Origin: Bacteroidia bacterium
GTDB lineage: Bacteria > Bacteroidota > Bacteroidia > J057
Direction of reading: 5' to 3'
Assembly (NCBI GenBank): GCA_045106675.1
Contig: JBGCFA010000014.1
Span: 1-64,000, forward strand
DNA length: 64,000 bases
The number at the start of each line of letters is the position of its first letter. Position 1 is the stretch's first letter. A program made the translations under genes and the position numbers. This document shows positions 12,856-41,922 of the stretch, piece after piece. The notes under the pieces were generated by a model. That model was not told where the DNA came from. It was given only the letters and a program-made list of their open reading frames with translations, and ran no database searches.

Positions 12856-14244
12856 TTAAGCAGCTTCCTGCTCTTTCTTCTGGAGTTCGACGAAGTCAGT
12901 AGCAGTGATCTTCTCAGTCTGTCTAGTAACCTTATTGTCGAGATAGTCATAGAGACGATCATTGGTCATACGACGATGGTGCATATCTAGCATCTCTTGG
13001 TTACCCATAGAGTATTCGGTGTATTGCTGCATCATCTCATCTGTAAGCTCCTCTTCACGAGTGGCAAAGCTATCTTTGATGGCCTGCTTCATGCTCTCCT
13101 CAATATCTTCGCGCTCAATGCGGTTGAAACCTTCACCTTGTTGGATTTTTTCAACGACGAGACTCCAAGTAACAGAAGTGGTAAATTCGGGATAAGCCGC
13201 TTCTACATCTTCCATTGTTTTGTACTTCTCTTCGTTTTCGAGCAACCAAACTTTGAGAAACTCATCAGGAAGCGTGAGAGCGTTAAGCTCCATTAGTTCC
13301 TTCTGGACCTGATTACGGAACTGCCATTTAGTAGATTCTGTGAGCTCTTTTTTCATTTGCTCCTTCATCTTCGCGCTAAATGTTTCTAAGTCTGCAAACT
13401 CAGTTTCATCCCACTGTAGATTTTGAGCCACTTTGGTAAAGAACTCAGGATTGAGTTCGGCTAGTGAGATGCGGTTGATACGCTTCACCTCAAATTTGAG
13501 TTTCTTTTTGCGTAACTCCTCAAGCTCCTCTACTTCCATGAAAATTAGTTTGCCGATTTCAGCAACATCCTTTTTCATTTTGAAGATATCTAAGTCAGCT
13601 ACTTCCTCAAGCTTCATACCTATATAAGGCTTGAAAAATTTAGGATTTTCAACTCTGATTGGGTTGAGGGCGATCATGCGCTGAAAGCCTTCTTCTACCG
13701 CTTCACCTGCATCATCTACTTCAAAAGCACTACCATAAATGATATCGCCATCACCAACTTCTTCTGGTGTCTGTACCTCGCCAAAACGATCTTGATAGTT
13801 TTTGAGCTCTTCTTCGAAGAACGCATCGTCAATTTCAACTTCGTATTGAGTAGGCGTTTCTTTGAAATCATAACTCACCTCAAATTCAGGCGCTAGTCCT
13901 ACTTCAAAGACAAAATCCATTGCAGTTTTGCAATCAGGATCAAAGTCCTCTTCGGTGAGTTCATGCTTAGGCATTGGATGCCCTAGTATGTCAAGCTTTG
14001 TTTCCGTCAAGTAATCAGTAAGCTCTTTGCTTACTTTCTTATTGACTTCTTCAACCACGATGGAGCTTCCAACCATCTTTTTGACCATGCCCATAGGCAC
14101 TTTTCCTGCTCTGAAGCCAGGTATGTTAGCCTGCTTCGCATAACGCTTAAGTTCTGTATCTACTGCGTCTTTATAGTCCTCTGGCGCCAAATGGATATTG
14201 ATATGGGCCGTAAGATTGCCAGTACTTTCTTGGGTGATATTCAA
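12856..14244 (-). CDS. tig: Trigger factor (ribosome-associated chaperone with a PPIase domain).
   Basis: 462 aa. The N-terminal ribosome-binding domain carries the signature GFRAGKVPMGMVKKMVG (compare E. coli GFRKGKVPMNIV). The overall acidic composition and the length fit trigger factor. Confidence 0.85.
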   Translation of the reverse strand: MNITQESTGNLTAHINIHLAPEDYKDAVDTELKRYAKQANIPGFRAGKVPMGMVKKMVGSSIVVEEVNKKVSKELTDYLTETKLDILGHPMPKHELTEEDFDPDCKTAMDFVFEVGLAPEFEVSYDFKETPTQYEVEIDDAFFEEELKNYQDRFGEVQTPEEVGDGDIIYGSAFEVDDAGEAVEEGFQRMIALNPIRVENPKFFKPYIGMKLEEVADLDIFKMKKDVAEIGKLIFMEVEELEELRKKKLKFEVKRINRISLAELNPEFFTKVAQNLQWDETEFADLETFSAKMKEQMKKELTESTKWQFRNQVQKELMELNALTLPDEFLKVWLLENEEKYKTMEDVEAAYPEFTTSVTWSLVVEKIQQGEGFNRIEREDIEESMKQAIKDSFATREEELTDEMMQQYTEYSMGNQEMLDMHHRRMTNDRLYDYLDNKVTRQTEKITATDFVELQKKEQEAA

Positions 14245-14318
14245 GACGAGAATTATTTAGAATGTATATACTTGAAAAAACGCCTCTGTCCGTTTCCGAC
14301 CAGAGGCGTACTTATTTG

Positions 14319-14400
14319 TACGGATGAAGGGACTCGAACCCCCACGCCTTGCGGCACCAGATCCTAAATCTAGCGCGTCTACCAATTCCGCCACATCCGC
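14319..14400 (-). tRNA. tRNA-Leu (anticodon TAG), long variable arm, CCA not encoded.
   Basis: The reverse complement reads GCGGATG-TG-GCGGAATTGGTAGACGC-GCTAGA-TTTAGGA-TCTGG-TGCCGCAAGGCGT-GGGGG-TTCGAGT-CCCTT-CATCCGT-A. The acceptor stem is 7 bp, and the T-loop is TTCGAGT. The anticodon loop tTAGga has a 5-bp stem. Confidence 0.85.
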
Positions 14401-14551: not shown

Positions 14552-16798
14552 ATGAGTGAAACTAGCACCCTACCCATAAGTTACGATCAGCAGATAATCA
14601 GAGCCTACCGCTCCATCATTCGCGGTATGAAGGATATTGAGCGTTCTGATAAAGCGGTTGTTAGGCGAGCTTTTGAGTATGCACGTGATGCCCACGAAGG
14701 CGTAAAGCGTAAATCGGGCGAACCCTATATTTTACATCCTTTGGCTGTGGCAAAGATTATTGTCAATGAAATGGGTTTAGAAGACCCTATTGCATTGGCT
14801 TGTGCCCTCTTGCATGATGTGGTAGAAGATACTCCCATCGAACTCGACGATATTAAAAGAGAGTTTGGTAAAAAATCCATGGAGATTATCGATGGATTGA
14901 CCAAAATCCCTCGTTCTACTACATTCGATGAGCTCAATTCGCAGCAGGCGGAAAATTTCCGCAAAATTCTACTCACCATTTCAGATGATATCAGAGTAGT
15001 CCTGATCAAACTGGCGGATCGTCTCCACAACATGAGAACCCTTGGTTCGATGCGGCGGGAAAAAATGTTGAAGATTGCTTCTGAAACATTGTATATATAT
15101 GCTCCCTTGGCACATCGACTTGGACTATATGAGATCAAAACTGAGTTAGAGGATCTTTCCTTCAAGCATAGTAATCCGACTCAATACGCGGACATTCAGG
15201 CCAAAATGCAAGCTTCGAGAGAAGATAAGCAGGCCTTTATTGATCGGATTATTAGGAGTATTAAGCAAAGATTAAAGCCTTCTGGATTAAAATTCGCCAT
15301 CAAGTCGCGCTATAAATCTGTCTATTCGATCTACTCGAAGATGCAGCGCAAAAACTTGCCCTTTGAAGAAGTTTTTGACCGCTATGCCGTTCGAATCATT
15401 TTAGAATCGCGAGAAGGACAAGAGCGTGAAGATTGCTGGCTAGTGTACTCACTCGTCTCAGGACTCTATCGTCCCAATCCAAAACGCCTCCGTGATTGGA
15501 TCACCGTGCCTAAGGACAATCATTATGAGTCTCTGCATACCACTTTGATGGGGCCTGACGGTAAATGGGTAGAGGTGCAGATTCGCACCCAAAGGATGGA
15601 TGAAATTGCTGAGAAAGGGGTTGCTGCTCATTGGAAGTATAAAGAAAATGGAACGGTTGAAGAGGAGTTTTTAACAGAATGGATATCTCAGATTCGAGAA
15701 ATCTTAGAAAACCCTCACCTAGATGCGCTTGAAGCGCTGCGGGGCTTTAAAGAAAACCTTCAACCGAATGATGTATTTGTCTTTACTCCTCAAGGTGAGA
15801 TGAAACGACTCCCTCGAAACTCTACTGCATTGGATTTGGCTTATAAAATCCATACCAATATTGGAGATAGTTCAATTGGTGCTAAGGTCAACAATCAAGT
15901 AGTTGCTCTGGACTATGTATTGCGTCCGGGCGATCAAGTTGAGATTCTTACCTCTCGTAAAGGTAATCCGCAAAAGGAATGGTTGCGATTTGCCAAGACC
16001 CCCCGCGCTAAAGACAATATCAAAAATTTCCTTCGCCGCAAACGGAACGAAGTAATCGAACAGGGAAGGATGTTATTTTTGTGGCGAGCCCGTCAATATG
16101 ATATTGATGAGAACCACCCCTATATGAATGAGTTGCTGGCCTATTTTATGATGCCGAGTGTAGAAGACTTTTTCTTTGCACTAGGTGCTCGTAAAATTGA
16201 TACGAATAAGATTCCGGAGTTCATCCAGATGAAAAAAGATGGACAGGCTGTCGGTAAAGAGTATATCGAAGCTTGGGAACAGCGCCAGAAATGGATGAAA
16301 GCACGCTTAAAAGAATTGGGGGTTGATGCTGATATGCTCGTTCTTGGCAAAGAACAAAGTGTTGATTACTATGTTTTAGGCAAATGTTGCAATCCCATAC
16401 CAGGCGATGATATTTTAGGCTTTGTCGAAGGCAACAAGATCACCATCCATCGGCCTTCATGTGAGAAAGCGATCTCCTTGATGTCTAGTTTTGGTTCACA
16501 AGTAGTACGAGCAAAGTGGACCGAGAGTGGAGATTCGAAAGATGTGACTTTTATGGTCGGAATCAAGGTAGTTGGCCTTGATAAACAGGGAATGCTCAAT
16601 GATTTGATCAGGGTGATTTCTCTTCAGCTTAAGCTAAATATTCAAAAAGTAACCATCGAATCACGCGAAGGCTTGTTTGAAGGCTTTTTTCATATATATG
16701 TGCATAACGATGAAGAATTGGACCGGATTATGGCCAAAATAGAAAAAGACCCCAATGTGTATACCGTATCTCGATATGATAGTGAAACCCATGAATAA
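14552..16798 (+). CDS. rel: Bifunctional (p)ppGpp synthetase/hydrolase of the RelA/SpoT family.
   Basis: 748 aa. The HD hydrolase domain has HPLAVAKI...LLHDVVEDT. The synthetase domain has RYKSVYSIYSKMQRK...DRYAVRII. A TGS domain and a C-terminal ACT-like domain are present. Confidence 0.92.
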   Translation: MSETSTLPISYDQQIIRAYRSIIRGMKDIERSDKAVVRRAFEYARDAHEGVKRKSGEPYILHPLAVAKIIVNEMGLEDPIALACALLHDVVEDTPIELDDIKREFGKKSMEIIDGLTKIPRSTTFDELNSQQAENFRKILLTISDDIRVVLIKLADRLHNMRTLGSMRREKMLKIASETLYIYAPLAHRLGLYEIKTELEDLSFKHSNPTQYADIQAKMQASREDKQAFIDRIIRSIKQRLKPSGLKFAIKSRYKSVYSIYSKMQRKNLPFEEVFDRYAVRIILESREGQEREDCWLVYSLVSGLYRPNPKRLRDWITVPKDNHYESLHTTLMGPDGKWVEVQIRTQRMDEIAEKGVAAHWKYKENGTVEEEFLTEWISQIREILENPHLDALEALRGFKENLQPNDVFVFTPQGEMKRLPRNSTALDLAYKIHTNIGDSSIGAKVNNQVVALDYVLRPGDQVEILTSRKGNPQKEWLRFAKTPRAKDNIKNFLRRKRNEVIEQGRMLFLWRARQYDIDENHPYMNELLAYFMMPSVEDFFFALGARKIDTNKIPEFIQMKKDGQAVGKEYIEAWEQRQKWMKARLKELGVDADMLVLGKEQSVDYYVLGKCCNPIPGDDILGFVEGNKITIHRPSCEKAISLMSSFGSQVVRAKWTESGDSKDVTFMVGIKVVGLDKQGMLNDLIRVISLQLKLNIQKVTIESREGLFEGFFHIYVHNDEELDRIMAKIEKDPNVYTVSRYDSETHE

Positions 16799-17499: not shown

Positions 17500-18165
17500 A
17501 TGCAAGAATTGTTTCGTGAAGCCATTACAGGCCCTAATCTCCTTTATACAATTTTACTAGGTTTCGTACTCCTTTATTTCCTTTCTGTCTTATTAGGCGC
17601 ACTGGATTTAGAGTTCTTCGAAATCGAACTTGATGCTGATATTGATATCGATGTAGATATCGATATGGATGTAGAGGCTGAAGCCGATGCAGATGTCGGA
17701 GGAGGAGGGCTCTTTGTGAACGTATTATCCTTCCTCAACATCGGGAAAGTGCCATTTATGATCTATGTTAGTTTGGTCATCCTTTCGATGTGGGTAATTG
17801 GGATCATCGCCAATCATATTTGGTATCCCACCTATAGTTGGTTTCCTCTTGCCTTGATGTTACCTAATTTTTTGCTCAGTCTATTGGTCGGCAAACTATT
17901 GTCAGAGCCATTTAAAAGCTCTTTTAGCAAGATCAATAAGCAAGGCCTTTCTAAAACCAAATTAGTCGGCAAGATATGTCAAGCTAGGACGACTCTGCGT
18001 TCCGATGCAATCGGCCAAGCAGAAGTAATGGTCGGAGAAGATCACCACACTATCACAGCCAAACTGCAAAAGGAGAAAACTCCTATCAAAGCAGGCGAAA
18101 AGGGCCTCATCATTGAATATCATAAGGACGATGACTATTTTATAGTAGCGCCTTTTGACGTATAA
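17500..18165 (+). CDS. YqiJ/NfeD-like inner-membrane protein (DUF1449-type) with a C-terminal OB-fold domain. It is the expected partner of the downstream flotillin.
   Basis: 221 aa. An N-terminal TM segment, then an acidic run DADIDIDVDIDMDVEAEADAD, then two or three TM helices. The C-terminal beta-rich segment GKICQARTTLRSDAIGQAEVMV...GEKGLIIEYHKDDDYFIVAPFDV resembles the NfeD C-terminal OB domain. The gene sits 34 nt upstream of the SPFH gene, as in E. coli yqiJ-yqiK. Confidence 0.6.
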   Translation: MQELFREAITGPNLLYTILLGFVLLYFLSVLLGALDLEFFEIELDADIDIDVDIDMDVEAEADADVGGGGLFVNVLSFLNIGKVPFMIYVSLVILSMWVIGIIANHIWYPTYSWFPLALMLPNFLLSLLVGKLLSEPFKSSFSKINKQGLSKTKLVGKICQARTTLRSDAIGQAEVMVGEDHHTITAKLQKEKTPIKAGEKGLIIEYHKDDDYFIVAPFDV

Positions 18166-18199
18166 AACTCATATTAACACTCAACCATATTATTAACGC

Positions 18200-20377
18200 A
18201 TGAACGATTTACTAATTAACATTGGTATTTTTGGCGGCAGTATTATTCTAGGCATTGTCTTAGTCTATGTAATCCTCGTCGCGGTGTTCTATCGCAAAGT
18301 CACGCAGGGGAAAGCCCTCGTTCGCACTGGGATGGGAAACACCAAAGTAGCCTTTGAAGGGATGTATGTAGTACCGCTATTACATACAGCGGAGGTTATG
18401 GACATTTCCCTTAAACAAGTTGTCATCAGCCGAGAAGGCAAAGATGGCCTAATTTGTAAAGACAATATCCGAGCTGACATTAAAGTGGTGTATTTTGTAC
18501 GCGTCAACGCTACCAACGAAGACGTCAAAAAAGTCGCCAGAACCATCGGTTGTAAACGAGCTTCTGATCTCGAAATGTTGATTCAACTTTTTGAAGCGAA
18601 ATTTTCAGAAGCCCTCAAGACAGTGGGTAAGCAATTTGACTTTGTTGATCTATACAATGCTCGTGCAGAGTTTCGTGATAATATCGTGAGCCAAATCGGA
18701 CAGGATCTCAATGGTTACTATCTCGATGACTGTGCGATTGACTACCTCGAGCAGACAGATATTGATCATCTAGATGAAGAAAATATCCTCGATGCAGAAG
18801 GTATCAAGAAAATTCGCGACCTGACTGCCAAGCAGATTACGCTTGCCAACAAGATCCAACGTGAAAAGGAAAAAGAAATCCGCAAACAGGATGTCGAAGC
18901 GCAGGAAGCAATCCTTGAGTTAGATAAGCAACTCGTTGAAAAAGAAGAAGTTCAAAAGCGTGAAGTTGCTTCGGTGAGAGCTCGTGAACTAGCTGAAACC
19001 CGCAAAATACAAGAAGAGGAATCTCTCAAAGCAGAGACAGCCCGTATCGCTAAAGAGCGTGATCTCGCCATCCAGACTGAAAATAAACAGCGTGATGTCA
19101 TAGTTGCCTCCAAAAACAAAGAACGTACAGAAGCTATCGAAACCGAAAAGGTGGTTCGCGATAAGGAACTTGAATCGACTGAAAGAGAGCGTATCGTTAC
19201 GCTAGCTAAGATTGAAAAAGAGAAAGCTGTTGAAGAAGAAAGGAAGAACATCCAAGATGTGATCCGCGACCGAGTAGCGGTAGAACGTGAGGTAGTCGAA
19301 GAGCAAGAAAAGATCAAGGATACTGAAGCTTTTGCCACGGCAGACCGCGAGAAAAAAGTCGCTTTGACTAAAGCAGCCCAGACTGCGGAAGAAGAATTGG
19401 TTCGCAAGATCAAAGGCGCCGAAGCGGATAAAGAAGCTTCTCAGCTAGTCGCTGAAAAGCGTATCATAGAAGCCAATGCGTTACGCGAAGCGATCGATAA
19501 AGAAGCCGAAGCTAAAAAGATCATGGCTGATGCAGTCGCCGTAGAGCATGCCTCTATCGGTATGGCCGAAGCCAAAGTCATGGAAGCCAAAGCCGACGCT
19601 CATCAGAAAGAAGGTGAAGCCCAAGCCAATATCCTTGAACAACAAGCCGTTGCAGAAGCTAAAGGCATCGAACTCAGAGGAGAGGCCCAAGCCGAATCTA
19701 ATCGTAAGATTGGTCGTGTTGATGCCGAACTCTCCATCGATCGTGGTATGGCCTTAGCACAGGTTACAGAAGCACAAGCTATCGCTGACGAAAAAGCAGG
19801 TATTGCCGAAGCCAAAGTCATCGAGCATAAAGCCCTCGCTGATGCCAAAGGCGTAGAAGCCAAAGCCGAAGCCATGCAAAAACTCGATGGGGTAGGCAAA
19901 GAGCACGAAGAGTTCAAGCTACGCTTGGAAAAAGATAAAGAAGTCGAATTGGCTCAAATCTCTATCCAGCGTGAAATTGCTCAGGCTCAGGCTCAAGTCC
20001 TTTCTGAAGCGCTGCAACATGCTAAAATCGACATCGTCGGTGGCGAAATGGAGTTCTTCGATCGTATCACCAATGCGGTTGGTCAAAGCAAATACGTCGA
20101 TAAGATCATGGAAAACCAGCACGTGGAAGAACTCAAAACGGCTCTCCTTGGCTCTGGTGGCAATGGCGACTTTCAAGGTAAACTGCGCGACTTTATCAGT
20201 CAGTTCAAATTGTCTACTGATGACATTCGCAATCTGACTGTATCTGCCCTGATCATGAAAATGCTCAGCCAGACCCAAGACGGTGAGAAGCAAGGGATAC
20301 TCAATCAATTGCTCAATACAGCCACCACACTGGGGATTGCCGATAAAAAGGCCGATAGTTTGGGCATAAGTATCTAG
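18200..20377 (+). CDS. Flotillin-like SPFH/band-7 protein (YqiK/FloT type).
   Basis: 725 aa. An N-terminal TM helix is followed by an SPFH domain (ISLKQVVISREGKDGLICKDNIRADIKVVYFVRV). A coiled coil of about 400 aa follows, with the flotillin-type Ala/Glu-rich repeats AEAKVMEAKADAHQKEGEAQANILEQQAVAEAKGIELRGEAQAE. Confidence 0.88.
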   Translation: MNDLLINIGIFGGSIILGIVLVYVILVAVFYRKVTQGKALVRTGMGNTKVAFEGMYVVPLLHTAEVMDISLKQVVISREGKDGLICKDNIRADIKVVYFVRVNATNEDVKKVARTIGCKRASDLEMLIQLFEAKFSEALKTVGKQFDFVDLYNARAEFRDNIVSQIGQDLNGYYLDDCAIDYLEQTDIDHLDEENILDAEGIKKIRDLTAKQITLANKIQREKEKEIRKQDVEAQEAILELDKQLVEKEEVQKREVASVRARELAETRKIQEEESLKAETARIAKERDLAIQTENKQRDVIVASKNKERTEAIETEKVVRDKELESTERERIVTLAKIEKEKAVEEERKNIQDVIRDRVAVEREVVEEQEKIKDTEAFATADREKKVALTKAAQTAEEELVRKIKGAEADKEASQLVAEKRIIEANALREAIDKEAEAKKIMADAVAVEHASIGMAEAKVMEAKADAHQKEGEAQANILEQQAVAEAKGIELRGEAQAESNRKIGRVDAELSIDRGMALAQVTEAQAIADEKAGIAEAKVIEHKALADAKGVEAKAEAMQKLDGVGKEHEEFKLRLEKDKEVELAQISIQREIAQAQAQVLSEALQHAKIDIVGGEMEFFDRITNAVGQSKYVDKIMENQHVEELKTALLGSGGNGDFQGKLRDFISQFKLSTDDIRNLTVSALIMKMLSQTQDGEKQGILNQLLNTATTLGIADKKADSLGISI

Positions 20378-20490
20378 TATTAAGTAGAAAGTACTGAGTA
20401 GGTCAAATCTTATTTCAATAATTTTGCTTCCTACTGCTATGCTATCCCAAGTACTTCATACTTTGTACTAAGTACTTAATACTAAAAAAA

Positions 20491-21132
20491 ATGTACACAA
20501 CGCTGACAATAGGGAGGGGCCATTGGCTTCTCCCGCTTTCCCTAAGTTTGCTGTTTTTATCCTGTACGGAAACGCTTTCAGATGTTGGGCTTAAACGCCA
20601 AACGATAGAAGCCCTCGTACAAAGTTCACAGCAAAAGCAAACCTACATTTATGAGGAAGAAGGGGAAGAGATAGAAGAGGAACAACAATGGTCCCAAATT
20701 GATCGCCAAAACGGTAATTGGGCCTACCTCGAAGTCTACAACCAGTTTCTAACCGAAAGCGGTCAGCAAGAGTACAATCTCTACGAATTTCAATTTGATC
20801 CACACAATGTCGGGGCGCGTTTTCCGATCCTCGAATATGAACTCAGGATATACCAAGATAGTGCTTGGTTTGCCCTGACCAATGAATTAGAAGCCAGTCT
20901 GGATAGCGTATTGATCCATGAAGTAGATACACTCTATCGTCTTCTTGGCTACGCACACAAAGGCGACCCGGCCCCTGGCCATATGCGCTATTGGTCTCCA
21001 GAATATGGCACCGTCCTCACTTGGTATGGCGAAAGTCGATACTTCGAACTTCACAAAGCCTATCAAGGATTGGACCCAGCACGCTTAACGCTTTTGAAAG
21101 GCCTCGCCTTTCAGGATACTCAAAAACAATGA
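20491..21132 (+). CDS. Hypothetical lipoprotein. Its stop overlaps the start of the giant AAA+ gene (ATGA at 21128-21132).
   Basis: 213 aa. LLPLSLSLLFLSC has a lipobox. An acidic stretch EEEGEEIEEEQQ follows. I recognise no known domain. Confidence 0.5.
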   Translation: MYTTLTIGRGHWLLPLSLSLLFLSCTETLSDVGLKRQTIEALVQSSQQKQTYIYEEEGEEIEEEQQWSQIDRQNGNWAYLEVYNQFLTESGQQEYNLYEFQFDPHNVGARFPILEYELRIYQDSAWFALTNELEASLDSVLIHEVDTLYRLLGYAHKGDPAPGHMRYWSPEYGTVLTWYGESRYFELHKAYQGLDPARLTLLKGLAFQDTQKQ

Positions 21133-24100
21133 CCGATCAGAATATCGCTTTAGAAGGAGGAACTTACGAAATCATCCAGCGTCGCTTACAAAAGCATGCA
21201 GATGAACTTCGTAGTCGCCTACAAAAGCTCAATGTCGAACGCAAGGATGTATTTGGTGCCATCGAAACCGAACTACTTGCTACCGACCGCATTTCCACCC
21301 AGCACAATTGTATCCCTCGAGATATGGTGGCGGTCGGCCCTCACTTTTTGTTTGGATATAACGTCCACCTCGGCCTCAAAGGAGAGATCGAACTTAGCGA
21401 TGTATTTAGTGCCTTTCGTTTTGATAATCAGGATCATAGCTTTCATCAGGAGGCTTTGTCTCTGATCGAGAACGCTCAATTTGAGGAGGATTTTCAAAAC
21501 CTCTACAAATATTATAAAGACACTGTATTTGCAAAGTTTGCGATCATCGGGCCGCATCTCTATATGGTTTTTCAGGTAGGTAAAGGACAAAATGATCTCA
21601 AGACGTTCAAATGGATTGTCAACGATGATAGCCTTACCTACTTAGGCAACCGTTTTGATCATGAGTACCGCTTCCCGGAACAACATGCCTTTCGTTGGGT
21701 ACGCACTACCCGTGAGATGCAGCGTCGCGGCAAGCACCCTCATATCTCGATCTTGGATCGCGTATTTGTCGAGACGGTAGGTGGTGACCTTACCATCAAA
21801 GTCGAGGACAATACTGAGACAGGACATGGCATCTATGAAGAGGCCGTAGAGCATAGCGATCAAACCCTTGACGACGCGGAGTTTTATTACGCTAATCTTG
21901 GTAATTTGATTGTACTCAAGATTCGCCCTTACCAAGAAAAAACATGGCGTTATCTCATCTTCAATGAAAAAATGCAAACTGTATTACGAGTAGATAGCTT
22001 GGATCAGTCTTGTGTATTACTACCTGATGATCAGGGGATTATTTTCTCCAATGGCTATTATCTACAGACCGGCGATTATAAGATTTTTGACAATCTAATC
22101 CATGATCTACAGTTTGAAAAGCGTTTGGCTTCGCCGAACGGGGAAGACTTTCTCTATATGTTTTACCAACGCAAGGAAGGAGCATATGTCCTACTTCCTT
22201 ACAATCTGGTAGAGCAACAAGTAGCCACACCTATTATCTGTAGTGGATTTTCGATCTTCTCCGATGGAGAACTCTGCTACTTCAGAGCCGAAGAGACTCC
22301 AAGTCGCCATCATGTGGTGCAAGTATGGCAAACGCCTTATGGAGAGGCTATCATTACGCCTGAGCAGCATGTCGATACCTATCTCTACAAGATTGGCAAC
22401 AAAGACTTGGTGCGCGGTATGGCAGAGTGTAACGAACTCTTAACGCTTCTCAATAAAGGCGATGAGTACGGTAATCTCTATGTCGATTTGGTGCGTAAGA
22501 CCAACGAAATTCTTGATAGTTATTATTGGATCAATCAGGCCGAAACGCAACAATTAAATGTGCCACTTGCTGCTGTCAAAGAAGCAGCAGCCTCGGCCAT
22601 AGATGAATTTGCTAAAGTGCGTCGTTTGCGTGAGCAAACCCGCCAAGCAGTAGACGAAACTGAAGACAATCTGAAAGCTTTGATGGATAAAATCCGTCGC
22701 TATAAGCCCAAGCAGGTCGATCAGTTTGTACAGTACCTATCGTCCCTCCGTCAACTCAATGGTGCCATCGTTGGCCTCAAAGAGCTACGCTATATCGATA
22801 TGGCAGGAGTAGAGGATATGGAGGCACGGGTTGTCGAACAATCTGCTAATCTCTCTGAGCAGATGGTTTCCTTTTTGTTGGAAGCTCAGGCTTTGGAGCC
22901 ATACCAGCTCAAAGTCGTTGAAAGTAAGCAGCAGATCAGTGAAGTAAGCAAAGTCGCTGAGGCCGAAACTTGTAAAGAACGCCTTGACGAAATCGGTGGA
23001 GAACTTGAACTCCTTATCGAGATCGTAGGTAATCTCAAGATCGGCGATGCTACCCAAACTACGGAGATCATTGAGCGTATTTCAGAGATTTATACGCAGC
23101 TCAATGGTCAGCGCGCTCAACTGAAGCAAAAGCGTCAGGAACTACAAGGCACCGAGGCCGCAGCTGAGTATCAGGCCCAGGTCCGTTTATTGGATCAAGC
23201 CTTGCTCAACTATCTCGATCTCTGTGATAGCCCAGCTCGATGTGAGGAATATTTGACGCGTATGACCATTCAATTAGAAGAGTTGGAAGGTCGCTTTTCA
23301 GAATATGAGACTTATATCTTAACTCTTTCCGAAAAGAGAGAGGAGATATACAATGCATTCGAAACTAGGCGTTTGCAACTGCTAGAGACACGTAATCGCC
23401 GTGCCGGAACGCTTTTTTCTGCCGGAGAACGTATCCTCAAAGGCATTGCCAATCGCTTAGCCCAGTTTAGCGAAGCCAATGAAATCAACGCTTACTTTGC
23501 CGCTGACCTTATGGTCAACAAAGTGCGCGATATCATCGGCGAGCTAGAGAAGCTCGAAGACAACGTCAAAGCGAGCGATCTACAAGCCCGTCTCAAGACT
23601 TTGCGTGAAGATGCACAGCGTCAATTGCGCGATCGTAAGGAACTCTTTGTTGACGGGAAAAACGTGATCCGTTTTGGGCGACATGCTTTTAGCGTCAATC
23701 AGCAAAAGCTTGAATTGACCATAGTCCCGAAAGAAAGCGAGCTATATTTTCATCTTACGGGTACCAACTTCTTTCAATTGATTGAAGATGGGGCGCTTCT
23801 GGCGACTCGCTCGGTTTGGGATATGAGTATTCCGGCGGAGAACAGGGAGGTCTATCGCGCTGAGTTTTTGGCTTATCTGCTACTCGCAGAACTCAGGAAC
23901 GAGGCCTTGCCCAAAGGTCAAAAACTAGCCGCCAAGGTCAAAGACTTTATGGCTAAGCGTTATACCGAAGGTTACATCAAAGGCATCCACGATAGCGACG
24001 CTACCCAAATCCTCACGGCTTTGCAAAAAATGGAAAGCAAGATGGGCTTGCTGCGTTATGCTGCACCCGTTCGAGCTTTGGCGCAGAGCTATTGGGAGCA

Positions 24101-25967
24101 TGGCTTGACCGACGAAAGTCGCAAGCAATTGTTACCTCAAATCAAGGCTGCCGCTAATGTGATGGGACTCTTTCCCAATAGCCGTGAGTTTGCCAGCTTG
24201 CAACAAGAACTCGAAAAGGGCCTCGAAAGCTTTGTCAATGGCAACGAACTATTTGCTGAGGTCGATTTGAAGTTGGCGGCAAGTTATCTATTTGCCGAAT
24301 TGAGTAGTGGAGATCGCTTTGCGGTCAGTAGTGCGGCGCGTGATCTTGCAGAAGGCTTTTTGGCTTTTCTCAAAAAGAAGAAGTCCACGCAGAAGTTTCG
24401 TGCTTCATACGAGAACTTAGAAGGGCTTGATCGTCTGGCCTTGATCCATCATTGGGTGCAGGCTTATATCAAGCAGGAAGTAGATGTCGCAAATTTAGGC
24501 TACGCCAAAGAGGTGAGCGTTCTGCTGGACGGCAGTAAAATAGATCCTAAACAAGTAATAGATGTGGCGCTGCGTCAAGAGTTGAAGGATATGTTGGGAG
24601 AGCATACAGTACTCGAAAAGGGTACTTATCTCCTTGATTATCATCAGTATCAGGCGAAATTACAGCATTTTGCTAATACAGTATTGCCGATGTATCACGC
24701 CTTCGTCGAACGCAAAAAGCAATTGGCAGAGGAGTATCGTGATAGTTTAAGATTGGAGAGCTTTAAACCTCGAGTACTGAGTTCGTTTGTGCGTAATCAA
24801 CTGATCGATGAGGTGTATTTGCCTTTGATTGGAGACAATCTCGCCAAGCAAATCGGTACAGTAGGGGAGGAGACACGCACAGATCGTATGGGTATGTTCT
24901 TACTGATTAGCCCTCCGGGTTATGGTAAGACGACTTTGATGGAGTATATCGCCAATCGATTAGGCTTAATCTTTATGAAGGTCAATGGCCCAGCTATCGG
25001 TCATGATGTGCGCTCTATCGATCCGGCAGAAGCACCAAATGCAGCAGGCCGCGAAGAACTCAATAAACTCAATCTCGCATTGGAGATGGGGGACAATATT
25101 ATGCTGTATGTTGATGATATCCAGCATTGTCATCCAGAGTTTTTGCAGAAGTTTATTTCTCTCTGCGATGCACAACGCAAAATTGAAGGGGTCTATCGGG
25201 GACGTACTCGGACTTATGACCTGAGAGGCAAGCGTGTGGCGGTAGTGATGGCTGGAAACCCTTATACGGAGTCTGGTGAGCAATTTCAGATACCGGATAT
25301 GTTGGCCAACCGAGCTGATACCTACAATCTTGGCGATATCATCGGTGAGCGAGATGAGGCATTCAAGCGTTCCTATTTGGAAAATGCCTTGACCTCCAAT
25401 TCTATCTTGACTCGGCTCAGTAGTGCACCCAAAGCGGATGTGCAATTGCTCATTCGTATGGCCGAAAGTGGCGAAGAAGATGCTGGCACCTTTGAGTCTC
25501 GCATTAGTAGTGAAGAGAGAGGGGAATACCTCAATGTTTTGCGCAAACTATTGCTGGTTCAAGATGTGATTCTCAAAGTGAATCAGGCGTATATACGTTC
25601 TGCAGCGCAGAACGATAACTTTAGGACCGAGCCGCCTTTCCAGTTACAAGGCTCCTATCGTAATATGAATCGCTTGGCTGAAAAGGTGGTACCTGCCATG
25701 AACGATGAGGAATTGCAGACGTTAATTTCTTCGCACTATGAAGGTGAGTCGCAAACGCTCAGCCAAGGAGCTGAGGCAAACTTCCTCCGTTTCCGTGCCT
25801 TGACGGGACAGTTAGATGAAACCGAGACGACTCGCTGGGAAGAAATTTGCCAATTGTACCGCGCGCAGAAAACACTTGAAGGCGATAGACTCGCTCAACT
25901 CGTACAGGAAATGGGCCGCTTTGCTGAGGGTCTTACGAGCATCAAAGATGCGATTGAGAAGGGCTAG
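21128..25967 (+). CDS. Giant (about 1,613 aa) uncharacterised protein with an N-terminal beta-rich domain, a long coiled-coil region and a C-terminal Lon-type AAA+ ATPase module without a peptidase domain.
   Basis: The ORF track shows the frame open from 20991, but the ATG at 21128 (MTDQNIALEGG...) overlaps the upstream stop and is the likely start. The Walker A is ISPPGYGKTTL at about 24911-24940. The Walker B is IMLYVDDIQH at about 25104-25127. Sensor 1 is VAVVMAGNP at about 25246-25265. The downstream stretch IPDMLANRADTYNL and the sensor-2-like GSYRNMNRLAEKV follow. The whole module aligns collinearly with the LonA ATPase (VGPPGVGKTS / LLDEIDKM / FVATSN / IPAPLLDRMEVIRL / GVRGLEREI). Confidence 0.7.
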
Positions 25968-35168: not shown

Positions 35169-38100
35169 ATGTGGTTGACACAATTTAGGCGGAGACCTCT
35201 GCTACTCGTTCTTCTTTTTACTGCTTTTTCGGCCTTTACTCCTTTATTTCTGCCTCCTCCCGGACTTACTAGTCCAGAAGCAATAGGACCATTTCTCAAC
35301 AATACCTTACCTGATAAAACGCCAGGCAATGGAGGTAGTGTTGCATGGAGTGTGACTCCGGCTTACATCAATCTATATTTTGATGATCCTTTGGTGATTG
35401 TTCCTGATGAGCGTGCAAACAAGATTTTTGTAGGTTCACGCGATGGCGTGCTAGAGGTTTTTGATGACAACCCCAATGTTACGACTAAGCAAACAGTAGT
35501 CGATCTGCGCACACAGGTGGCAGAGGTTTGGGATGCTGGTTTCTTAGGCATGGCACTCCACCCAGATTTTGGCTTAGCCGGATCTCCCGACGCCAATTAT
35601 GTGTATCTCTATTACACTGCTAAAGGAGCAAATGGCCAAAATGGTCCGTTTAGCTGTGGAGGTGGTTGTTTTACATGTTTCGATAACCCCAATTTTTTCG
35701 GTAGTTATTTGCGACTTTCTCGCTTTACCTTAGATCCGAGTAATTATACGATTGATCCTGCCACTGAAGTCCGAATGTTCAATATCCGCCAATACAACGG
35801 TACTCACCGTGGTGGTGGAATGGTTTTTGGCGACGATGGCTATTTATACTTAACAATTGGAGATCAAGCGCGCTATACTGGTGCATTGAACATCGTCGAT
35901 AACTTCGAAGGTGGAGTTGTTAGACTTGATGTTGATCAACAAGGAGGAAGTGTCAGCCATGCTCCGCGTCGTAAAATGGGCGTTGAAACGGGGCTTTCAG
36001 ACGAGTTTACGGGTGTTGGATACTATGTACCCAACAGTAACCCTTGGCAAGCTCCTGATAATAGCCTCTTTGAGGAATTTTATACTGTAGGACACCGTAG
36101 TCCTCACCGTATGACCAAAGACCGTGCTACCGGAGATTTATTTATCGGTGAAGTTGGCGGTGGCCAACGCGAAGAAATCAACATCGTAGAAAGCGGGCGA
36201 AACTATGGCTGGCCAATCTTTGAGGGAAACCTCGGCCCGAGTAATCGTTGTAATTCAGGAACCACAATCAATTTTGGTACTTATAAGCCGCCATTGACAG
36301 ATTTTTTGCGTAGCGAAGCCAATGCTATCATTGGTGGCTATGTGTATCGTGGCAATAACTACCCCAATATTGCTGGCCAATATATTTGTGGAGGATATTC
36401 ACAAAATCGAATCTTCAGCATTGATCCTGCTACAGGAACCAAAACAGTATTGACTAGCTTTACTCCAGGTGGATTGATCACCTTTGGCGAATCCAATGAT
36501 GGCGAACTCATCATGGGCCGTCAAAACGGCAATACTAATTTATATGCCCTTACTGGTACAGGAATTGGTGCACCGGCTCCAACTTTACTTTCGCAAGTAG
36601 ATGCATTTTCAGACTTGCAGACGCTTACACCAAAAGCAGGAGTGATTCCTTATGATATGATCGAGGACTTCTGGTCTGATGGCGCGGATAAAGATCGCTG
36701 GATAGCTATCCCTAATGATGGGACACATGATACTCCAGATGAGCAAATCCAATTTTCTGAAAATGGCAACTGGACGTTCCCCAAGGGGGCGGTCCTCATC
36801 AAGCACTTCGAACTGTTTGGCAAACGTCTAGAGACTCGTTTTGAAGTTCACGGCATAGATGGTACTTACTATTATCTCACCTATAAGTGGAATGCCCAAG
36901 GTACGGATGCAACATTACTTACTGACGGGCTTGATGAAACGATCACCGTCAATGGACAAAGTCAAGTATGGCATTTTCCTAGTACGAGTGAATGTCAAAA
37001 CTGTCACCAATCTGCAAGTGGATTTGTACTGGGAGCCAGAACGCGTTATCTCAACCGTGATATCGTCTACCCTCAAACGGGTTTGAGTGCAAATCAATTA
37101 GTGAGTCTTAGTCATATCGGTATCCTAGATCAACCAATTTCTGATACTGATGCAGCAAATTATCTAACGGCAGTCGCCAAGGATGATCCCAATGCCAGTT
37201 TAGAGATTAAGGCGCGTTCATACCTTGACCTCAATTGTTCTTATTGCCACCAGCCGGGTACAGGCAATCGTGCTGTTTTTGACGCACGCTTAACGACAGA
37301 TCTCTCGAATCAAGATATTATCAATGGTTCGGTTATCGAAGCCCTCGGTCTGAGTGACGCAAGGGTCATCGTTCCACAGAATGTGGGCCAATCAGTGACT
37401 CACTATCGTATGAACTCTCTCTTAAGCGGGGTAGCAATGCCTCCTTTAGCTAAAAATAAAATTGATACCGAAGGCGTCCAGCTGATCGAAGACTGGATCA
37501 ACAGCCTAACACCAGATACGACCCAAAACTTAGTCGTTGTGGGTGATGCTGTCCAACAAGCTGGCGGTTGTTATGAATTGACCGCTGCACAAAATAGCTT
37601 AGCAGGAGCTGCTTGGTATCCTGAAGTAATCAGCCTCGATGAAGATGCCACCATTACTTTCAATATTGGTATGGGAAGCAATGATGCGGGTGCCGATGGA
37701 GCAACCTTTATCTTCCAAAATCAAGGTACTGATGTTATCGGTACATTAGGTGGTGGATTAGGAGCTACGGGCATAACCCCTTCTTTGGGTATTTCATTTG
37801 ACACTTATGGACAAGTTGATGACCAAATCGTGATTTGGCAAAATGGCGCTATTGCTACTGCCTTAGCCGGTCCGGTATGTGCGCTGCCTTCATGTGTCAA
37901 TATTGAAGATGGTGGTACACATGCAGTTGAAATCCAATGGGATGCAGGCCTTCAGCGTTTGCAAGTCCTTTTTGATGGTTCGCTGCGTGCTACTTATACC
38001 GACAATGTCGTACAAACCATTTTTGGCGGCAATCCTTGGGTCTATGTCGGAGCTACTGCTGCGACTGGCGGACTCAATAATCTCCATGAGATCTGTAATT

Positions 38101-41100
38101 TTGATCTCGATGCGACCTTCCCGCCTGAGCAAGTAAATCCCGGTGGCACAGGTATTACAGCCAGTTACTTCAACAATATTGACTTTACTAGTCCTGCCTT
38201 CACACGTATTGATCCCCAAATCAATTTTGCTTGGGGCAATGATTCTCCTGATCCATTGATCACAGACCCCAATACCTTCTCTGTTAGATGGGAAGGTGGT
38301 TTAGTGGCACCTTATACAGGAACGTTTACCTTTTACTCTACTACCGATGATGGTGTGAGACTATGGGTAGATGGTGTCTTAGTCATTGATCAATATATCG
38401 ATCAAGCGCCTACCGAGTGGACTGGTACTTATGATTTGGTTGCTGGGGAATTGGTTCCTTTCAAGATGGATTATTATGAGCGTGCTGGTGGTGCTGTGGC
38501 TAAACTAGAATGGGCGGGTCCATTTACAGAGCGCCAATTTGTGCAGCCTACTTTCCTTTTCCCCGTTGGGGCGGTGTATTCTCCTCAGCCTCCGGTGGCT
38601 TCCTTTACGGTAACGCCTAATGTAGGCATCGCACCATTACCGGTCATCTTTGATGCGATAGCCTCAAATGATCCAGACGGTAGCATCGCAAGCTATGACT
38701 GGGACTTTGGTGATGGTAATACGGCTACTGGCCTTACGCCACTTCATACCTACAATACTGATGGTACTTATAATGCTCGCCTGATCGTAACCGATGATGG
38801 TGGCAAGACTGATACTGCTTTCCAAACGATACAGGTGGATGCCTCTAATACGGCACCTGTCGCTAGTTTCACGGCTTCGCCGAACGCTGGTACGGCTCCT
38901 CTTTTGGTAAGTGTCGATGCGACTGCGTCGAACGATGACAATGGTATCCAGACTTATGATTGGGACTTTGGCGATGGTGCTACTGGCAACGGACAGATTA
39001 CCGATCATACTTATCTAGTTGGTGGTACTTTTACCATCACTCTGATCGTCAGTGATCAAGAAGGACTAAAAGATACTGCGACGACTAGTATTGATGTACA
39101 ACCAGCAGGGGGCTACTGTCATGTGCTTGCTAATGGAGAAGTCGTGATTGAAGCTGAAAACTTCAGCGATAATGTTAGTGGATCTGGTGGTGCAAGTGCT
39201 ACTACTTGGCAGATCTATAACGATGCTGCTGCCAGTGGAGGCGTTGCGCTACGCGCAGAACCTAATACTGGTGTCTGGACAGGACTCAATCTCAATGGAC
39301 CTCGTCTCGATTACGATATTTTGTTTGACGTACCAGGTCAATATTATGTATACGTTCGGGCTAGTGCTGCATCTGGTTCAGACGATTCCTTCCACGCTGG
39401 TTTGAATGGTAACTCCGTTACTAATCAATCTGGCACCGGTATGGGAGTCAATGGTCCTTGGGACTGGTCTGAGAGAGCTAATAATTATGAAGTAGTCGTA
39501 ATCAACGTACCGAGTACAGGTAAGCATACCTTCAATCTCTGGATGCGTGAGGACGGTACGCAAGTAGATAAGATCGTGATCAAGGCAGCTAGTGCTACTC
39601 CTTCGGGTAACGGCCCTGCTGAAAGTCAAATCGGTGATTGTGGCACTAGCGTGGGTAACCAAGCTCCGATTGCCAACTTCACTTCAGATGTGATTTCAGG
39701 TTTCGCACCATTGCCAGTGAACTTTGATGCTGCTAACTCTACTGACAATGAAGGTCCAATCGCTAGCTATAGCTGGAACTTTGGTGATGGCAATACTGCT
39801 GCGGGTGTTACCGCTAGCAATACTTATTCACAAGCGGGTATTTATACGATCAGCCTTACCGTAACAGACCAAGGTGGACTTAGCGATACCTATGATGCAC
39901 AGGTTCAAGTCAGCAATGATCCCGGAAATGGAGAAATTTGCTTTGATGAAGCTGGCGGTGAGTTGGTAATTGAAGCTGAAAATTACTCAGCGCTTGGTGC
40001 TGGTACTGGTAGTGCTGCGGGAGTAGCTTGGGTCAACTTTACTGATGCGAGCGCAAGTAATGGTGCTGGAGTAAGAGCTGAACCTAATACAGGTACTTGG
40101 ACAGGACTCAATCTCAATGGCCCTCGTCTTGACTACAATGTCAATTTCAATGCTGCTGGAACTTATCAAGTATATGTCCGTACTAGTTCACCTACTGCCA
40201 ATGATGATTCTTATCATGTAGGACTCAATGGAGTAGGGGTAACCAATCTTTCTGGTTATGGTATGGGAGGCGTTGGTCCATGGTTTTGGGCTTCTGGTGC
40301 TAATGATGGTGATCAAGTAGAGATCGTCGTACCTGCTGCTGGTAAGCATACCATTAGTGTTTGGATGCGTGAAGATGGCGTAGCTTTAGATAAGTTGGTT
40401 ATCACTCAATTGAGTGCCCCAACAGCTGCTGGACCAATCGAAAGTAGCCAAGTTACTTGTGGCAATGCCGCTAACTTAGCGCCAATCGCAAGCTTTACAG
40501 CAACGCCTAGTAGTGGAATCGCTCCTCTTCCTGTAGCGGTTGATGGCAGCACTTCTTCTGATCCCGATGGACAGATTGCTGCTTATGCTTGGGACTTCGG
40601 TGATGGTACTACCACCTCGGGTCTAACGGCCAATCACACTTACAACAATGCAGGTACTTTCAATATCGTATTGACGGTAACAGATACCGCTGGCTTGAGT
40701 AGTCAGACTAGCCAGTCGATTACGGTTTCTCCTTCGGGCAACGGGCCGCTCTGTTTTGACGAAGTCAATGGAGAACTCGTGATGGAAGCGGAAAATTATT
40801 CTGCTATCATCCCAGGAACGGGTAATGCCGCTGGTCATACTTGGCAAACTTACACAGAGGCTTCAGCTAGTGGCAGCGCTGCTGTTATCGCTACTCCAAA
40901 TACTGGCGCTTCTGCAGGTTTAAATCTCACTGGTCCACGTTTGGACTACGAGATCAACTTTGCTACTGCTGGTACTTATCGAGTCTTTGTGCGTAGTGCT
41001 GGTGCAAGCAATGCCGATGATTCTTACCATGTTGGTCTCAATGGCGTTTCTACTACTAACCTCTCTGGTTATGGTATGGGAGCCAATGGCCCTTGGGCTT

Positions 41101-41840: not shown

Positions 41841-41922
41841 ACATACTGGGGAATTCTGGGCGACAGTGTCCAAATTCCCCAGCTTTATGTACCTTTGCGG
41901 CAGAAAAAATAGATACTGCACT

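Follow-up and report, generated by a model that had tools for sequence, protein, structure and literature searches.

A flotillin-linked giant DUF3686 ATPase with a MoxR-class AAA+ core in a Bacteroidia genome

Three of four tightly spaced, co-directional genes in the window (the whole 64,000-nt stretch of contig JBGCFA010000014.1 analysed here) are one copy of a conserved module that encodes a YqiJ-like protein, an SPFH/flotillin-like protein and a giant ATPase, the remaining gene being a lipoprotein-like ORF placed between the last two. A flotillin/YqiJ/beta-propeller-AAA+ operon has been described by comparative genomics (Ravi et al., PMC11237479, section 19 and Table S3), with the cluster already flagged in 2020/2024, and it has the same three core proteins, order and domain architectures, down to a matching architecture string in Table S3; the original prediction of a candidate new module therefore does not stand. 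The same paper also describes an "abbreviated" PspA-less operon and offers a similar chaperone or membrane-dynamics proposal. Unlike the full operon of Ravi et al., the window has no CesT/Tir-PspA dyad or HTH-S24 gene and carries an extra lineage-specific lipoprotein gene, and since tblastn found no PspA, CesT or HTH-S24 cluster member anywhere in the window, it represents the abbreviated form. What we add to that description is the MoxR-class assignment of the AAA+ module, a near-obligate linkage to flotillin as against a lineage-restricted linkage to PspA, and an invariant DD in Walker B.

Gene layout and conserved linkage

All four ORFs lie on the + strand, with intergenic gaps of 34 nt between the first and second genes and 113 nt between the second and third, while the stop of the third and the start of the fourth overlap in ATGA (context caATGAcc), a layout predicted exactly in coordinates, gaps and overlap. 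We read this overlap as translational coupling. Promoter and terminator scans of the locus returned chance level only, and we infer operon status from the spacing only. The genes flanking the four ORFs in the window are housekeeping genes, namely RelA/SpoT, trigger factor, tRNA-Leu and DPP-IV.

The first gene (17500..18165, + strand) encodes a probable YqiJ/YuaF-type (NfeD2-like) membrane protein of 221 aa, with about three hydrophobic segments (residues 8-42, 75-108 and 113-135), an acidic D/E-rich loop and an OB-like soluble domain at the C-terminus. Its Pfam YqiJ_N match (E=5.5e-05, 23.8 bits) is barely above the cut-off of 23 and a Pfam scan of the C-terminal fragment gave no match; the sole PDB match of a profile of 41 orthologous sequences was B. 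subtilis YuaF (2K14, E=0.09), spanning the soluble domain. The second gene (18200..20377, + strand) encodes a protein of 725 aa that is best described as SPFH/flotillin-like: a transmembrane anchor at the N-terminus is followed by an SPFH domain, a long helical region rich in A/E/K and a C-terminal part that is conserved. Searched whole it had no Pfam match, whereas residues 1-230 searched alone matched Band_7/SPFH (PF01145, 1.9e-11) over residues 33-207, and Pfam found no Flot domain (PF15975) at E<=1 on the C-terminal 165 residues. The identification draws in addition on the one hydrophobic segment (residues 2-37), the match of the orthologue profile to the QmcA cage structure (8Z5G, 8.6e-4), synteny, and plasmid-record orthologues named "flotillin family protein" or "SPFH domain-containing protein". 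Positive residues after the transmembrane helix suggest that the SPFH domain faces the cytoplasm.

In E. coli (yqiJ-yqiK) and B. subtilis (yuaF-floT), the gene for a small polytopic NfeD2-type protein lies immediately upstream of one for a transmembrane-anchored SPFH protein, as the probable NfeD2-type gene does in the window, and the long helical region of the SPFH protein is common to NfeD2-SPFH2 pairs and the window. YqiK is about 553 aa long and FloT about 509 aa, compared with the 725 aa of the window protein, which is too divergent for a whole-protein Pfam match. Both known systems have been described as two-gene pairs without an ATPase (Hinderhofer et al. 2009, PMC2636767).

The third gene (20491..21132, + strand) encodes a lipoprotein-like protein of 213 aa, called from a lipobox-like LFLSC with Cys25 by a hand-coded PROSITE-style pattern, and has no family in Pfam or NCBIfam scans. 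By tblastn among the related loci, a homologue was found only in L001 (77% identity), a relative 91% identical, and weakly in L002, and the flotillin-to-ATPase slot is variable in other genomes, holding unrelated genes or none. The ORF, which had been proposed as part of the module, is thus a lineage-specific insert in a variable slot and not a conserved member.

Upstream flanks of 3.5 kb or more are available for 61 related loci; in 58 of these the giant gene is immediately preceded by a same-strand flotillin gene, and in 52 yqiJ is also present upstream of flotillin, so that the giant gene is not usually found apart from flotillin, the arrangement that would have spoken against the original prediction. 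Where a flotillin match was obtained, it ends no more than 300 nt before the ATPase start in 34 of 69 loci; at three loci (L003, L021 and L026) no flotillin was found within 7.7-10 kb of the ATPase gene. The related loci span at least seven phyla (Bacteroidota, Planctomycetota, Verrucomicrobiota, Desulfobacterota, Kiritimatiellota, Omnitrophota and Clostridia) with a high cross-phylum identity of 46-53%. Further homologues add Pseudomonadota, Actinomycetota and Deinococcota, and the YqiJ-flotillin-ATPase triad occurs at about 40% identity on Pseudomonas, Streptomyces and Deinococcus replicons. Divergence is correlated between the giant protein and flotillin (r=0.80) and between the giant protein and YqiJ (r=0.74), as shared species phylogeny alone would also give. 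Immediately upstream in 18-22 Bacteroidota loci are genes for PspA_IM30 (6e-41) and CesT_Tir_1 (3e-58) and a divergent HTH_3+Peptidase_S24 gene, which reproduces the Dokdonia-type arrangement of PMC11237479, and on the Pseudomonas plasmid pQBR103 YjfI and PspA stand upstream of the module. ATPase-flotillin linkage is near-obligate, and ATPase-PspA linkage is lineage-restricted.

Architecture of the giant ATPase

The fourth gene (21129..25967, + strand) encodes a DUF3686-family protein of 1612 aa, in line with the predicted size of about 1,610 aa; the ATG at 21129 is favoured as start, M1 being invariant in an alignment with 13 homologues. No hydrophobic or transmembrane segment was found in it, and the protein is therefore taken to be cytosolic. 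Homologues number 5894 at E<=1e-10; among the matches listed below the one at 94%, all but 3 of 119 show 52-63% identity with 99-100% query coverage, and full-length co-linear homologues of 1600-1930 aa reach down to 26-30% identity. The original prediction held that a C-terminal LonA-like AAA+ module was its only recognisable part, and this has to be replaced: Pfam DUF3686 (PF12458) covers residues 26-466 (6.5e-192, 638 bits against a cut-off of 25) over profile positions 1-448 of 448, and DUF7902 (PF25472) covers residues 587-671 (22887-23141, + strand; 2.3e-28, and 3.4e-29 on the fragment). Together with the C-terminal AAA+ module, these domains give the co-linear build of the DUF3686 family, whose length is about 1600-1900 aa.

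The core of DUF3686 is a beta-propeller domain (residues ~46-415; 21264..22373, + strand), with a long helix (residues 10-42) ahead of it at the N-terminus. An AlphaFold2 model of residues 1-484 (mean pLDDT 87.3, pTM 0.85) is all-beta from 48 to 401, and its top Foldseek PDB matches are all beta-propellers (Sec12, Cdh1, DCAF1 and the clathrin terminal domain), with E down to 5e-09, yet TM-scores of just ~0.25. An E/L/A/R/Q-rich helical, coiled-coil-like region follows (residues 481-870; 22569..23738, + strand), recognised by composition and by the DUF7902 that it contains, and termed "coiled-coil" in PMC11237479. The middle domain (residues 871-1240; 23739..24848, + strand) gave no match in a Pfam scan of the fragment and is mostly helical in the AlphaFold2 model of residues 871-1612 (mean pLDDT 82.8, the middle-domain blocks mostly 85-94). 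At the C-terminus, the AAA+ lid and a helical extension (residues 1421-1612; 25389..25964, + strand) are all-helical in the model and contain conserved columns such as EPPFxLQGSYRNM.

The AAA+ core between the middle domain and the lid (24849..25388, + strand) contains Walker A (SPPGYGKTT, K1267), Walker B with an invariant DD (D1329-D1330), a pre-sensor-1 beta-hairpin (~1351-1364), sensor 1 (N1377) and an arginine motif (IPDMLANRAD, R1395). Pfam AAA and AAA_5 both match, AAA_5 (MoxR/dynein type) being the best over the whole core, and in structure comparisons CbbQ and NorQ, two MoxR-class ATPases, come out closest rather than Lon. The AAA+ module is MoxR-class by its AAA_5-type core, its pre-sensor-1 hairpin and these structures; a LonA-type identity is rejected, as neither a Lon N-terminal (LAN) domain nor an S16 protease domain was found in Pfam and NCBIfam scans of the whole protein and its fragments. 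The Walker A, Walker B, sensor-1 and arginine motifs are near-invariant in homologues just 26-31% identical elsewhere, which indicates that the giant protein is a working ATPase; because Walker B has DD and not the catalytic DE, hydrolysis may be slow or switch-like. Between beta2 and alpha2, the sequence as read shows no evident aromatic pore loop of the canonical kind.

MoxR-class ATPases such as CbbQ and NorQ are hexameric protein remodellers, and they usually pair with a VWA/MIDAS partner. Compared with CbbQ (with CbbO), NorQ (with NorD), RavA and midasin, the window ATPase has no such partner in its neighbourhood: Pfam detected no VWA domain in the four window proteins, and the genes conserved around it encode just YqiJ, SPFH, PspA, CesT/Tir and HTH-S24. 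It further differs from MoxR-class remodellers in its N-terminal fusion to about 1,240 residues that make up the propeller, the helical region and the middle domain, in the DD in place of DE, and in having an SPFH scaffold as partner.

A putative membrane remodelling role

The most reasonable reading of the module is a membrane-associated remodelling role. More specifically, and with moderate confidence drawn from the known behaviour of the families, we propose that the giant protein works in the cytosol and uses ATP to remodel assemblies of flotillin, and of PspA where present, during membrane stress. On the cytoplasmic side of the inner membrane, flotillin would build an oligomer to which the OB-domain of YqiJ binds; the giant ATPase would oligomerise via its AAA+ ring, dock on this assembly through the beta-propeller or the helical arms, and spend ATP on remodelling the scaffold, either in assembly and disassembly or in the extraction of client proteins. 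It has been reported that SPFH proteins form membrane-attached cages, with HflK/C cited as the example (PMC10936438), and the parallel drawn originally with HflK/C-FtsH holds as an analogy for the pairing of an SPFH scaffold with an AAA+ protein. It does not extend to the ATPase itself, as FtsH is membrane-embedded, of the classical AAA clade and equipped with an M41 protease, whereas the window ATPase is soluble and MoxR-class, and a Pfam scan found no peptidase (M41) domain in it; likewise, HflK/C is periplasmic, whereas the window SPFH domain probably faces the cytoplasm, as its positive residues suggest.

An alternative that we regard as unlikely is that the ESCRT-III-like PspA is the true substrate and the ATPase a Vps4 analogue, with flotillin and YqiJ a mere membrane platform and PspA encoded elsewhere in this genome. 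The CesT/Tir-PspA genes directly upstream of yqiJ in the Bacteroidota loci and on pQBR103 fit this, as does a 2025 review in which a Vps4-like ATPase is apparently absent in bacteria (PMC7619361), and an AAA+ gene adjoining the gene for an ESCRT-III-superfamily polymer in many relatives makes a functional analogy to Vps4/ESCRT-III possible. Compared with Vps4, the giant protein has no homology beyond the AAA+ fold and no MIT domain and belongs to another AAA+ clade, and the window is without PspA.

It is improbable that the module spreads horizontally as an anti-phage or conflict system in which a large ATPase powers a sensor or effector at the membrane. Copies on megaplasmids (pQBR103, Streptomyces, Deinococcus and Hymenobacter), the high cross-phylum identity, transposase-like, AbiEii-like or TA-like genes that by eye from sequence sometimes occupy the flotillin-ATPase slot, and the phage-repressor-like HTH+S24 regulator alongside many loci could be read in this way, but PADLOC-DB 2.0 gave only weak P-loop/coiled-coil noise for the four proteins (best E=0.0055), homologues occur in 0 of 50,697 phage records and in just 13 of 72,556 plasmid records, the module shows no conserved effector domain, nuclease or other, and the window copy sits among housekeeping genes. 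Least credible is a DNA-repair ATPase whose adjacency to flotillin is functionally irrelevant, for which the names (Pfam DUF3686 "ATPase involved in DNA repair", NCBI "DNA repair ATPase") and weak RuvB_N P-loop matches speak, since these matches cover the P-loop only (~45 residues) below family thresholds, the giant ATPase showed no domain for DNA binding or nuclease activity, the conserved neighbours are membrane proteins and not repair genes, and the literature searched lends the name no support, with no mention of DUF3686 and no pairing of "DNA repair ATPase" with flotillin found.

In the proposed remodelling of the flotillin scaffold, the ESCRT-III-like PspA polymer would be a further substrate of the ATPase in the many Bacteroidota, and on the Pseudomonas plasmid, that have CesT/Tir and PspA genes just ahead of the module. 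The complete set would then serve in membrane stress or membrane repair, and the window carries its abbreviated, PspA-less form with a lineage-specific lipoprotein gene inserted.

Gene order in the window and in related loci

Four co-directional genes lie on the + strand of the window, exactly where the original prediction had placed them: a yqiJ-like gene (gene 1, 17500-18165, 221 aa), an SPFH/flotillin-like gene (gene 2, 18200-20377, 725 aa), a lipoprotein-like gene (gene 3, 20491-21132, 213 aa) and the gene of a giant ATPase (gene 4, 21129-25967, 1612 aa from the ATG at 21129). The spacers in this run are 34 nt and 113 nt, and the stop of gene 3 and the start of gene 4 share the overlap caATGAcc. 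The longest mechanical ORF of gene 4 opens with TTG (20991); comparison with 13 homologues, in which M1 is invariant and 'LEGGTYEII' is aligned, places the N-terminus at ATG 21129. Because scans for consensus sigma-70 promoters (15 against 16.4 expected) and intrinsic terminators (10 against 8.5 expected) were at chance level, and the promoter consensus is unsuited to Bacteroidota, operon status is derived from spacing and synteny only.

The genes flanking the module (YqiJ, SPFH/flotillin-like protein and giant ATPase) are housekeeping genes unconnected with it. Trigger factor (12856-14244, minus strand), tRNA-Leu (14318-14400, minus strand; the sole Rfam match in the window), RelA/SpoT (14552-16798) and a 184-aa ORF without family assignment lie upstream, and a DUF7000 protein, an S26 peptidase-like ORF, a DNA_alkylation-domain protein and a RibD_C-domain protein follow downstream; GC content across the region is not unusual. 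The 184-aa ORF and the DUF7000 gene were ruled out as module members, being unconserved in related loci. Further away, a minus-strand ORF of >1,013 aa (1-~3040) extends past the left edge of the window. Q/E/L-rich repeats follow its signal-peptide-like N-terminus (MRRLRVSSVLTLLFWGGLNISLAQ), a tandem repeat with a 198-bp unit (2.3 copies, 87% matches) occupies 464-915 within it, and the ORF is the probable source of the strong AT skew (-0.35) of 1-2000. On the + strand, a 2,223-aa protein (35169-41840) carries PKD, GH115_C, legume-lectin, GSDH and PA14 domains together with Por_Secre_tail, a type IX secretion sorting domain, and is followed by a TonB_C+TPR protein (41866-43233); both genes fit a Bacteroidota origin of the window.

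Scanning one genome per species for the giant ATPase gave 80 loci from Bacteroidota, Planctomycetota, Verrucomicrobiota, Desulfobacterota, Kiritimatiellota, Omnitrophota and Clostridia, 61 of which, with 3.5 kb or more of sequence 5' of the ATPase gene, were used for synteny counts. The giant gene is not, as a rule, separated from flotillin: a homologue of the latter (40-64% identity) lies immediately 5' of it on the same strand in 58 of the 61 loci, with a recognisable yqiJ besides in 52, and 11 of the shorter loci show the flotillin 3' end at the contig edge. Three loci (L003, L021 and L026) are true exceptions, with unrelated neighbours. An apparent opposite-strand gene ('c17') obtained by ORF clustering in some GC-rich loci proved to be an antisense ORF shadowing the flotillin gene, and is no exception. 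At about 40% identity, the triad also occurs on Pseudomonas fluorescens SBW25 pQBR103, a Streptomyces linear plasmid and a Deinococcus plasmid, where the small ORF upstream has diverged too far for BLAST to match it; in Deinococcus this ORF resembles NfeD at a below-threshold score (E=0.0078). Pairwise distances of the three module proteins are correlated (r=0.80 and 0.74), which is consistent with co-inheritance, yet shared phylogeny alone suffices, and this mirror-tree result is not independent evidence. In four Bacteroidota loci (L008, L014, L044 and L058), a conserved four-gene run, c13-c14-c15-c16, was seen downstream of the ATPase.

We conclude that yqiJ-SPFH-ATPase is a real conserved module, in which flotillin/YqiJ, rather than PspA, is by gene order the near-obligate partner of the ATPase. 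It had been put forward as a candidate new module, a claim that precedence removes, since the operon was already described by Ravi et al. (mSystems 2024, bioRxiv 2020; PMC11237479), who report CesT/Tir-PspA among its parts, list the same gene string for Dokdonia donghaensis in Table S3, and propose a generic chaperone-like or membrane-dynamics role.

Architecture and class of the giant ATPase

The C-terminal AAA+ module is not the only recognisable part of the giant protein, as had been supposed: residues 26-466 match Pfam DUF3686 (PF12458, 6.5e-192) and residues 587-671 match DUF7902 (2.3e-28). Among the candidates scored, 5,894 homologues were found at E<=1e-10; with residues 1-1200 alone, which exclude the AAA module, E<=1e-30 was reached by 444 clusters (50% identity), whose listed full-length members have 1,600-1,930 aa and are co-linear down to 26-30% identity. 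The family is present in at least 10 phyla and is unusually well conserved, with 46-53% identity across phyla. A 1,711-aa protein from a eukaryotic protein set (P0115, eukprot) shows a full-length identity of 53%, which could reflect contamination or horizontal transfer into a eukaryote; the Pfam entry for DUF3686 also includes eukaryotes.

PDB sequence searches, whether queried by the giant protein itself or by a 14-sequence profile, returned P-loop similarity to p97 and RuvB only, and no solved structure of any member of the family. An AlphaFold2 model of residues 1-484 built from a 40-sequence alignment (mean pLDDT 87.3, pTM 0.85) starts with a long helix (10-42), continues with an all-beta domain (48-401) and then has a helical linker, and every top Foldseek match in the PDB is a beta-propeller (Sec12, Cdh1, DCAF1, clathrin terminal domain). 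The TM-scores are low (~0.25) and establish the fold class alone. In the model of residues 871-1612 (mean pLDDT 82.8), the middle domain is helical, the AAA+ core is alpha/beta and has a beta-hairpin immediately preceding the sensor-1 strand, and a helical lid with its C-terminal extension follows. The protein has no hydrophobic segment and is therefore cytosolic.

The AAA+ module is MoxR-class, and the Lon-type identity first assigned to it was rejected on three grounds: Foldseek ranked NorQ and CbbQ nearest (TMt 0.55-0.63) and Lon no earlier than rank 40; AAA_5 (MoxR/dynein type) was the sole Pfam model aligning the entire core (4.8e-06); and family scans (Pfam, NCBIfam) reported neither a Lon N-domain nor a Lon protease domain. 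Walker A (SPPGYGKTT), sensor 1 ('GNPYTE') and the motif 'IPDMLANRAD' are near-invariant even in homologues only 26-31% identical elsewhere. So is Walker B, which reads DD ('DDIQH', residues 1329-1330, window 25113-25118) instead of the usual DE, with no exception in the homologues examined. This near-invariance of active-site motifs argues for a working nucleotide-dependent enzyme, in which the DD Walker B could make hydrolysis slow or switch-like.

Partner proteins and accessory genes

The gene 1 protein passes Pfam YqiJ_N marginally (23.8 bits, cut-off 23) and contains, besides an acidic loop, about three hydrophobic segments. Its 41-orthologue profile has a single PDB match, the soluble domain of B. 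subtilis YuaF (2K14), which covers the entire OB-like domain; YuaF is the protein that would be expected, and the match is weak (E=0.09). The whole gene 2 protein gave no Pfam match even at E<=10, a filter artefact from its low-complexity A/E/K-rich helical region, since residues 1-230 alone match Band_7/SPFH at 1.9e-11, and automated annotation could miss this SPFH subfamily for the same reason. A single N-terminal hydrophobic segment is followed by basic residues, which suggests that the SPFH domain is cytoplasmic. The sole match of the gene 2 orthologue profile is the QmcA SPFH cage (8Z5G, 8.6e-4), and the Pfam 'Flot' C-terminal domain was undetected in the protein. Thus the safe label for gene 2 is 'SPFH/flotillin-like, paired with a YqiJ/YuaF-type NfeD2', pairing with NfeD2 being what defines the SPFH2 group of Hinderhofer et al. 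(PMC2636767).

The lipoprotein had been counted as a member of the module. Homologues of gene 3 were found in a 91%-identical relative (L001), weakly in L002 and nowhere else among related loci, and the flotillin-ATPase spacer is at most 300 nt in 34 of 69 loci. Longer spacers (L002, L004, L006, L027, L029, L030, L054 and L078 among others) hold unrelated genes that differ between genomes: some encode membrane or lipoprotein-like proteins, others IS200-like transposases, and AbiEii-like genes, toxin-antitoxin-like genes and a DUF559-like ORF also occur, most of these identities being assigned by eye from sequences; in about half of all loci the slot is empty. With such a restricted distribution and such variable contents, gene 3 is an occupant of the slot and not a module component.

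Immediately 5' of yqiJ, 18-22 Bacteroidota loci carry a CesT_Tir_1 protein (3e-58) and a PspA/IM30 protein (6e-41), and in the same loci a divergently transcribed HTH_3+Peptidase_S24 regulator also precedes yqiJ. The link of the module to PspA and CesT/Tir is frequent yet lineage-restricted, and none of the three accessory genes was found in the 64-kb window. On pQBR103 (record 84437-97641), a co-directional run of YjfI, PspA, rhomboid protease, DUF2491, DUF350 and DUF1190 continues with a glutathionylspermidine synthase-family protein, a hypothetical protein, the SPFH protein and the giant ATPase, so that a polyamine-type PspA operon and the flotillin-ATPase module occur together on a well-studied megaplasmid.

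Putative function of the module

The established parts are a tightly linked, conserved YqiJ-SPFH-ATPase triad and a cytosolic ATPase that combines a propeller and helical arms with a ring module of the MoxR class. From these we propose that the SPFH protein would assemble into a cage-like oligomer at the inner membrane, on its cytoplasmic face, like solved SPFH assemblies, and be bound by the OB domain of YqiJ, and that the giant ATPase would hexamerise, dock via its propeller or helical arms, and spend ATP on remodelling either the scaffold or a client by assembly, disassembly or extraction; PspA, where present, may be remodelled likewise. We lean slightly towards this general reading of the giant ATPase as an ATP-driven remodeller docked on an SPFH scaffold. 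MoxR ATPases usually work with a VWA partner, and for the giant ATPase none was found; this counts against the remodeller reading, as do the lack of an obvious aromatic pore loop, the DD Walker B and the three loci with the ATPase alone.

A more specific version seems rather improbable as a whole, namely that the giant ATPase arose independently as a bacterial, MoxR-class counterpart of Vps4; at damaged membrane it would act as an ATP-driven disassemblase recycling flotillin cages, along with PspA/ESCRT-III polymers in genomes that have them. If true, it would fill a gap noted in a 2025 ESCRT-III review (PMC7619361), in which a Vps4-like ATPase appears absent from bacteria. That PspA is instead the true substrate of the ATPase is similarly doubtful; in its favour, PspA genes adjoin the module in the 18-22 Bacteroidota loci and on pQBR103. 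A role of the module as a defence system is very unlikely, in view of a negative PADLOC scan of the module proteins, a phage collection without any homologue and the housekeeping genes on its flanks. A genuine DNA-repair role is scarcely credible, having in its favour the NCBI family name 'DNA repair ATPase' and nothing else.

This family name is misleading, and in our literature search its pairing with flotillin was not found, the phrase being absent from the SPFH/PspA papers listed; nor did we find any paper mentioning DUF3686 or any experimental work on the module. The window copy belongs to a computationally described, experimentally untouched system, and adds refinement, not discovery, to an operon flagged in 2020/2024: the ATPase is MoxR-class, its near-obligate partner is flotillin/YqiJ, and the lipoprotein is incidental. 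The role of bacterial flotillins is a matter of debate, as is the way in which SPFH cages and PspA/ESCRT-III polymers are dismantled without Vps4. The family is a good experimental target for bacterial flotillin function and for a Vps4 substitute in bacteria, with module copies in organisms that should be workable, including Flavobacterium, P. fluorescens SBW25 pQBR103, Proteus mirabilis, Streptomyces and Deinococcus.
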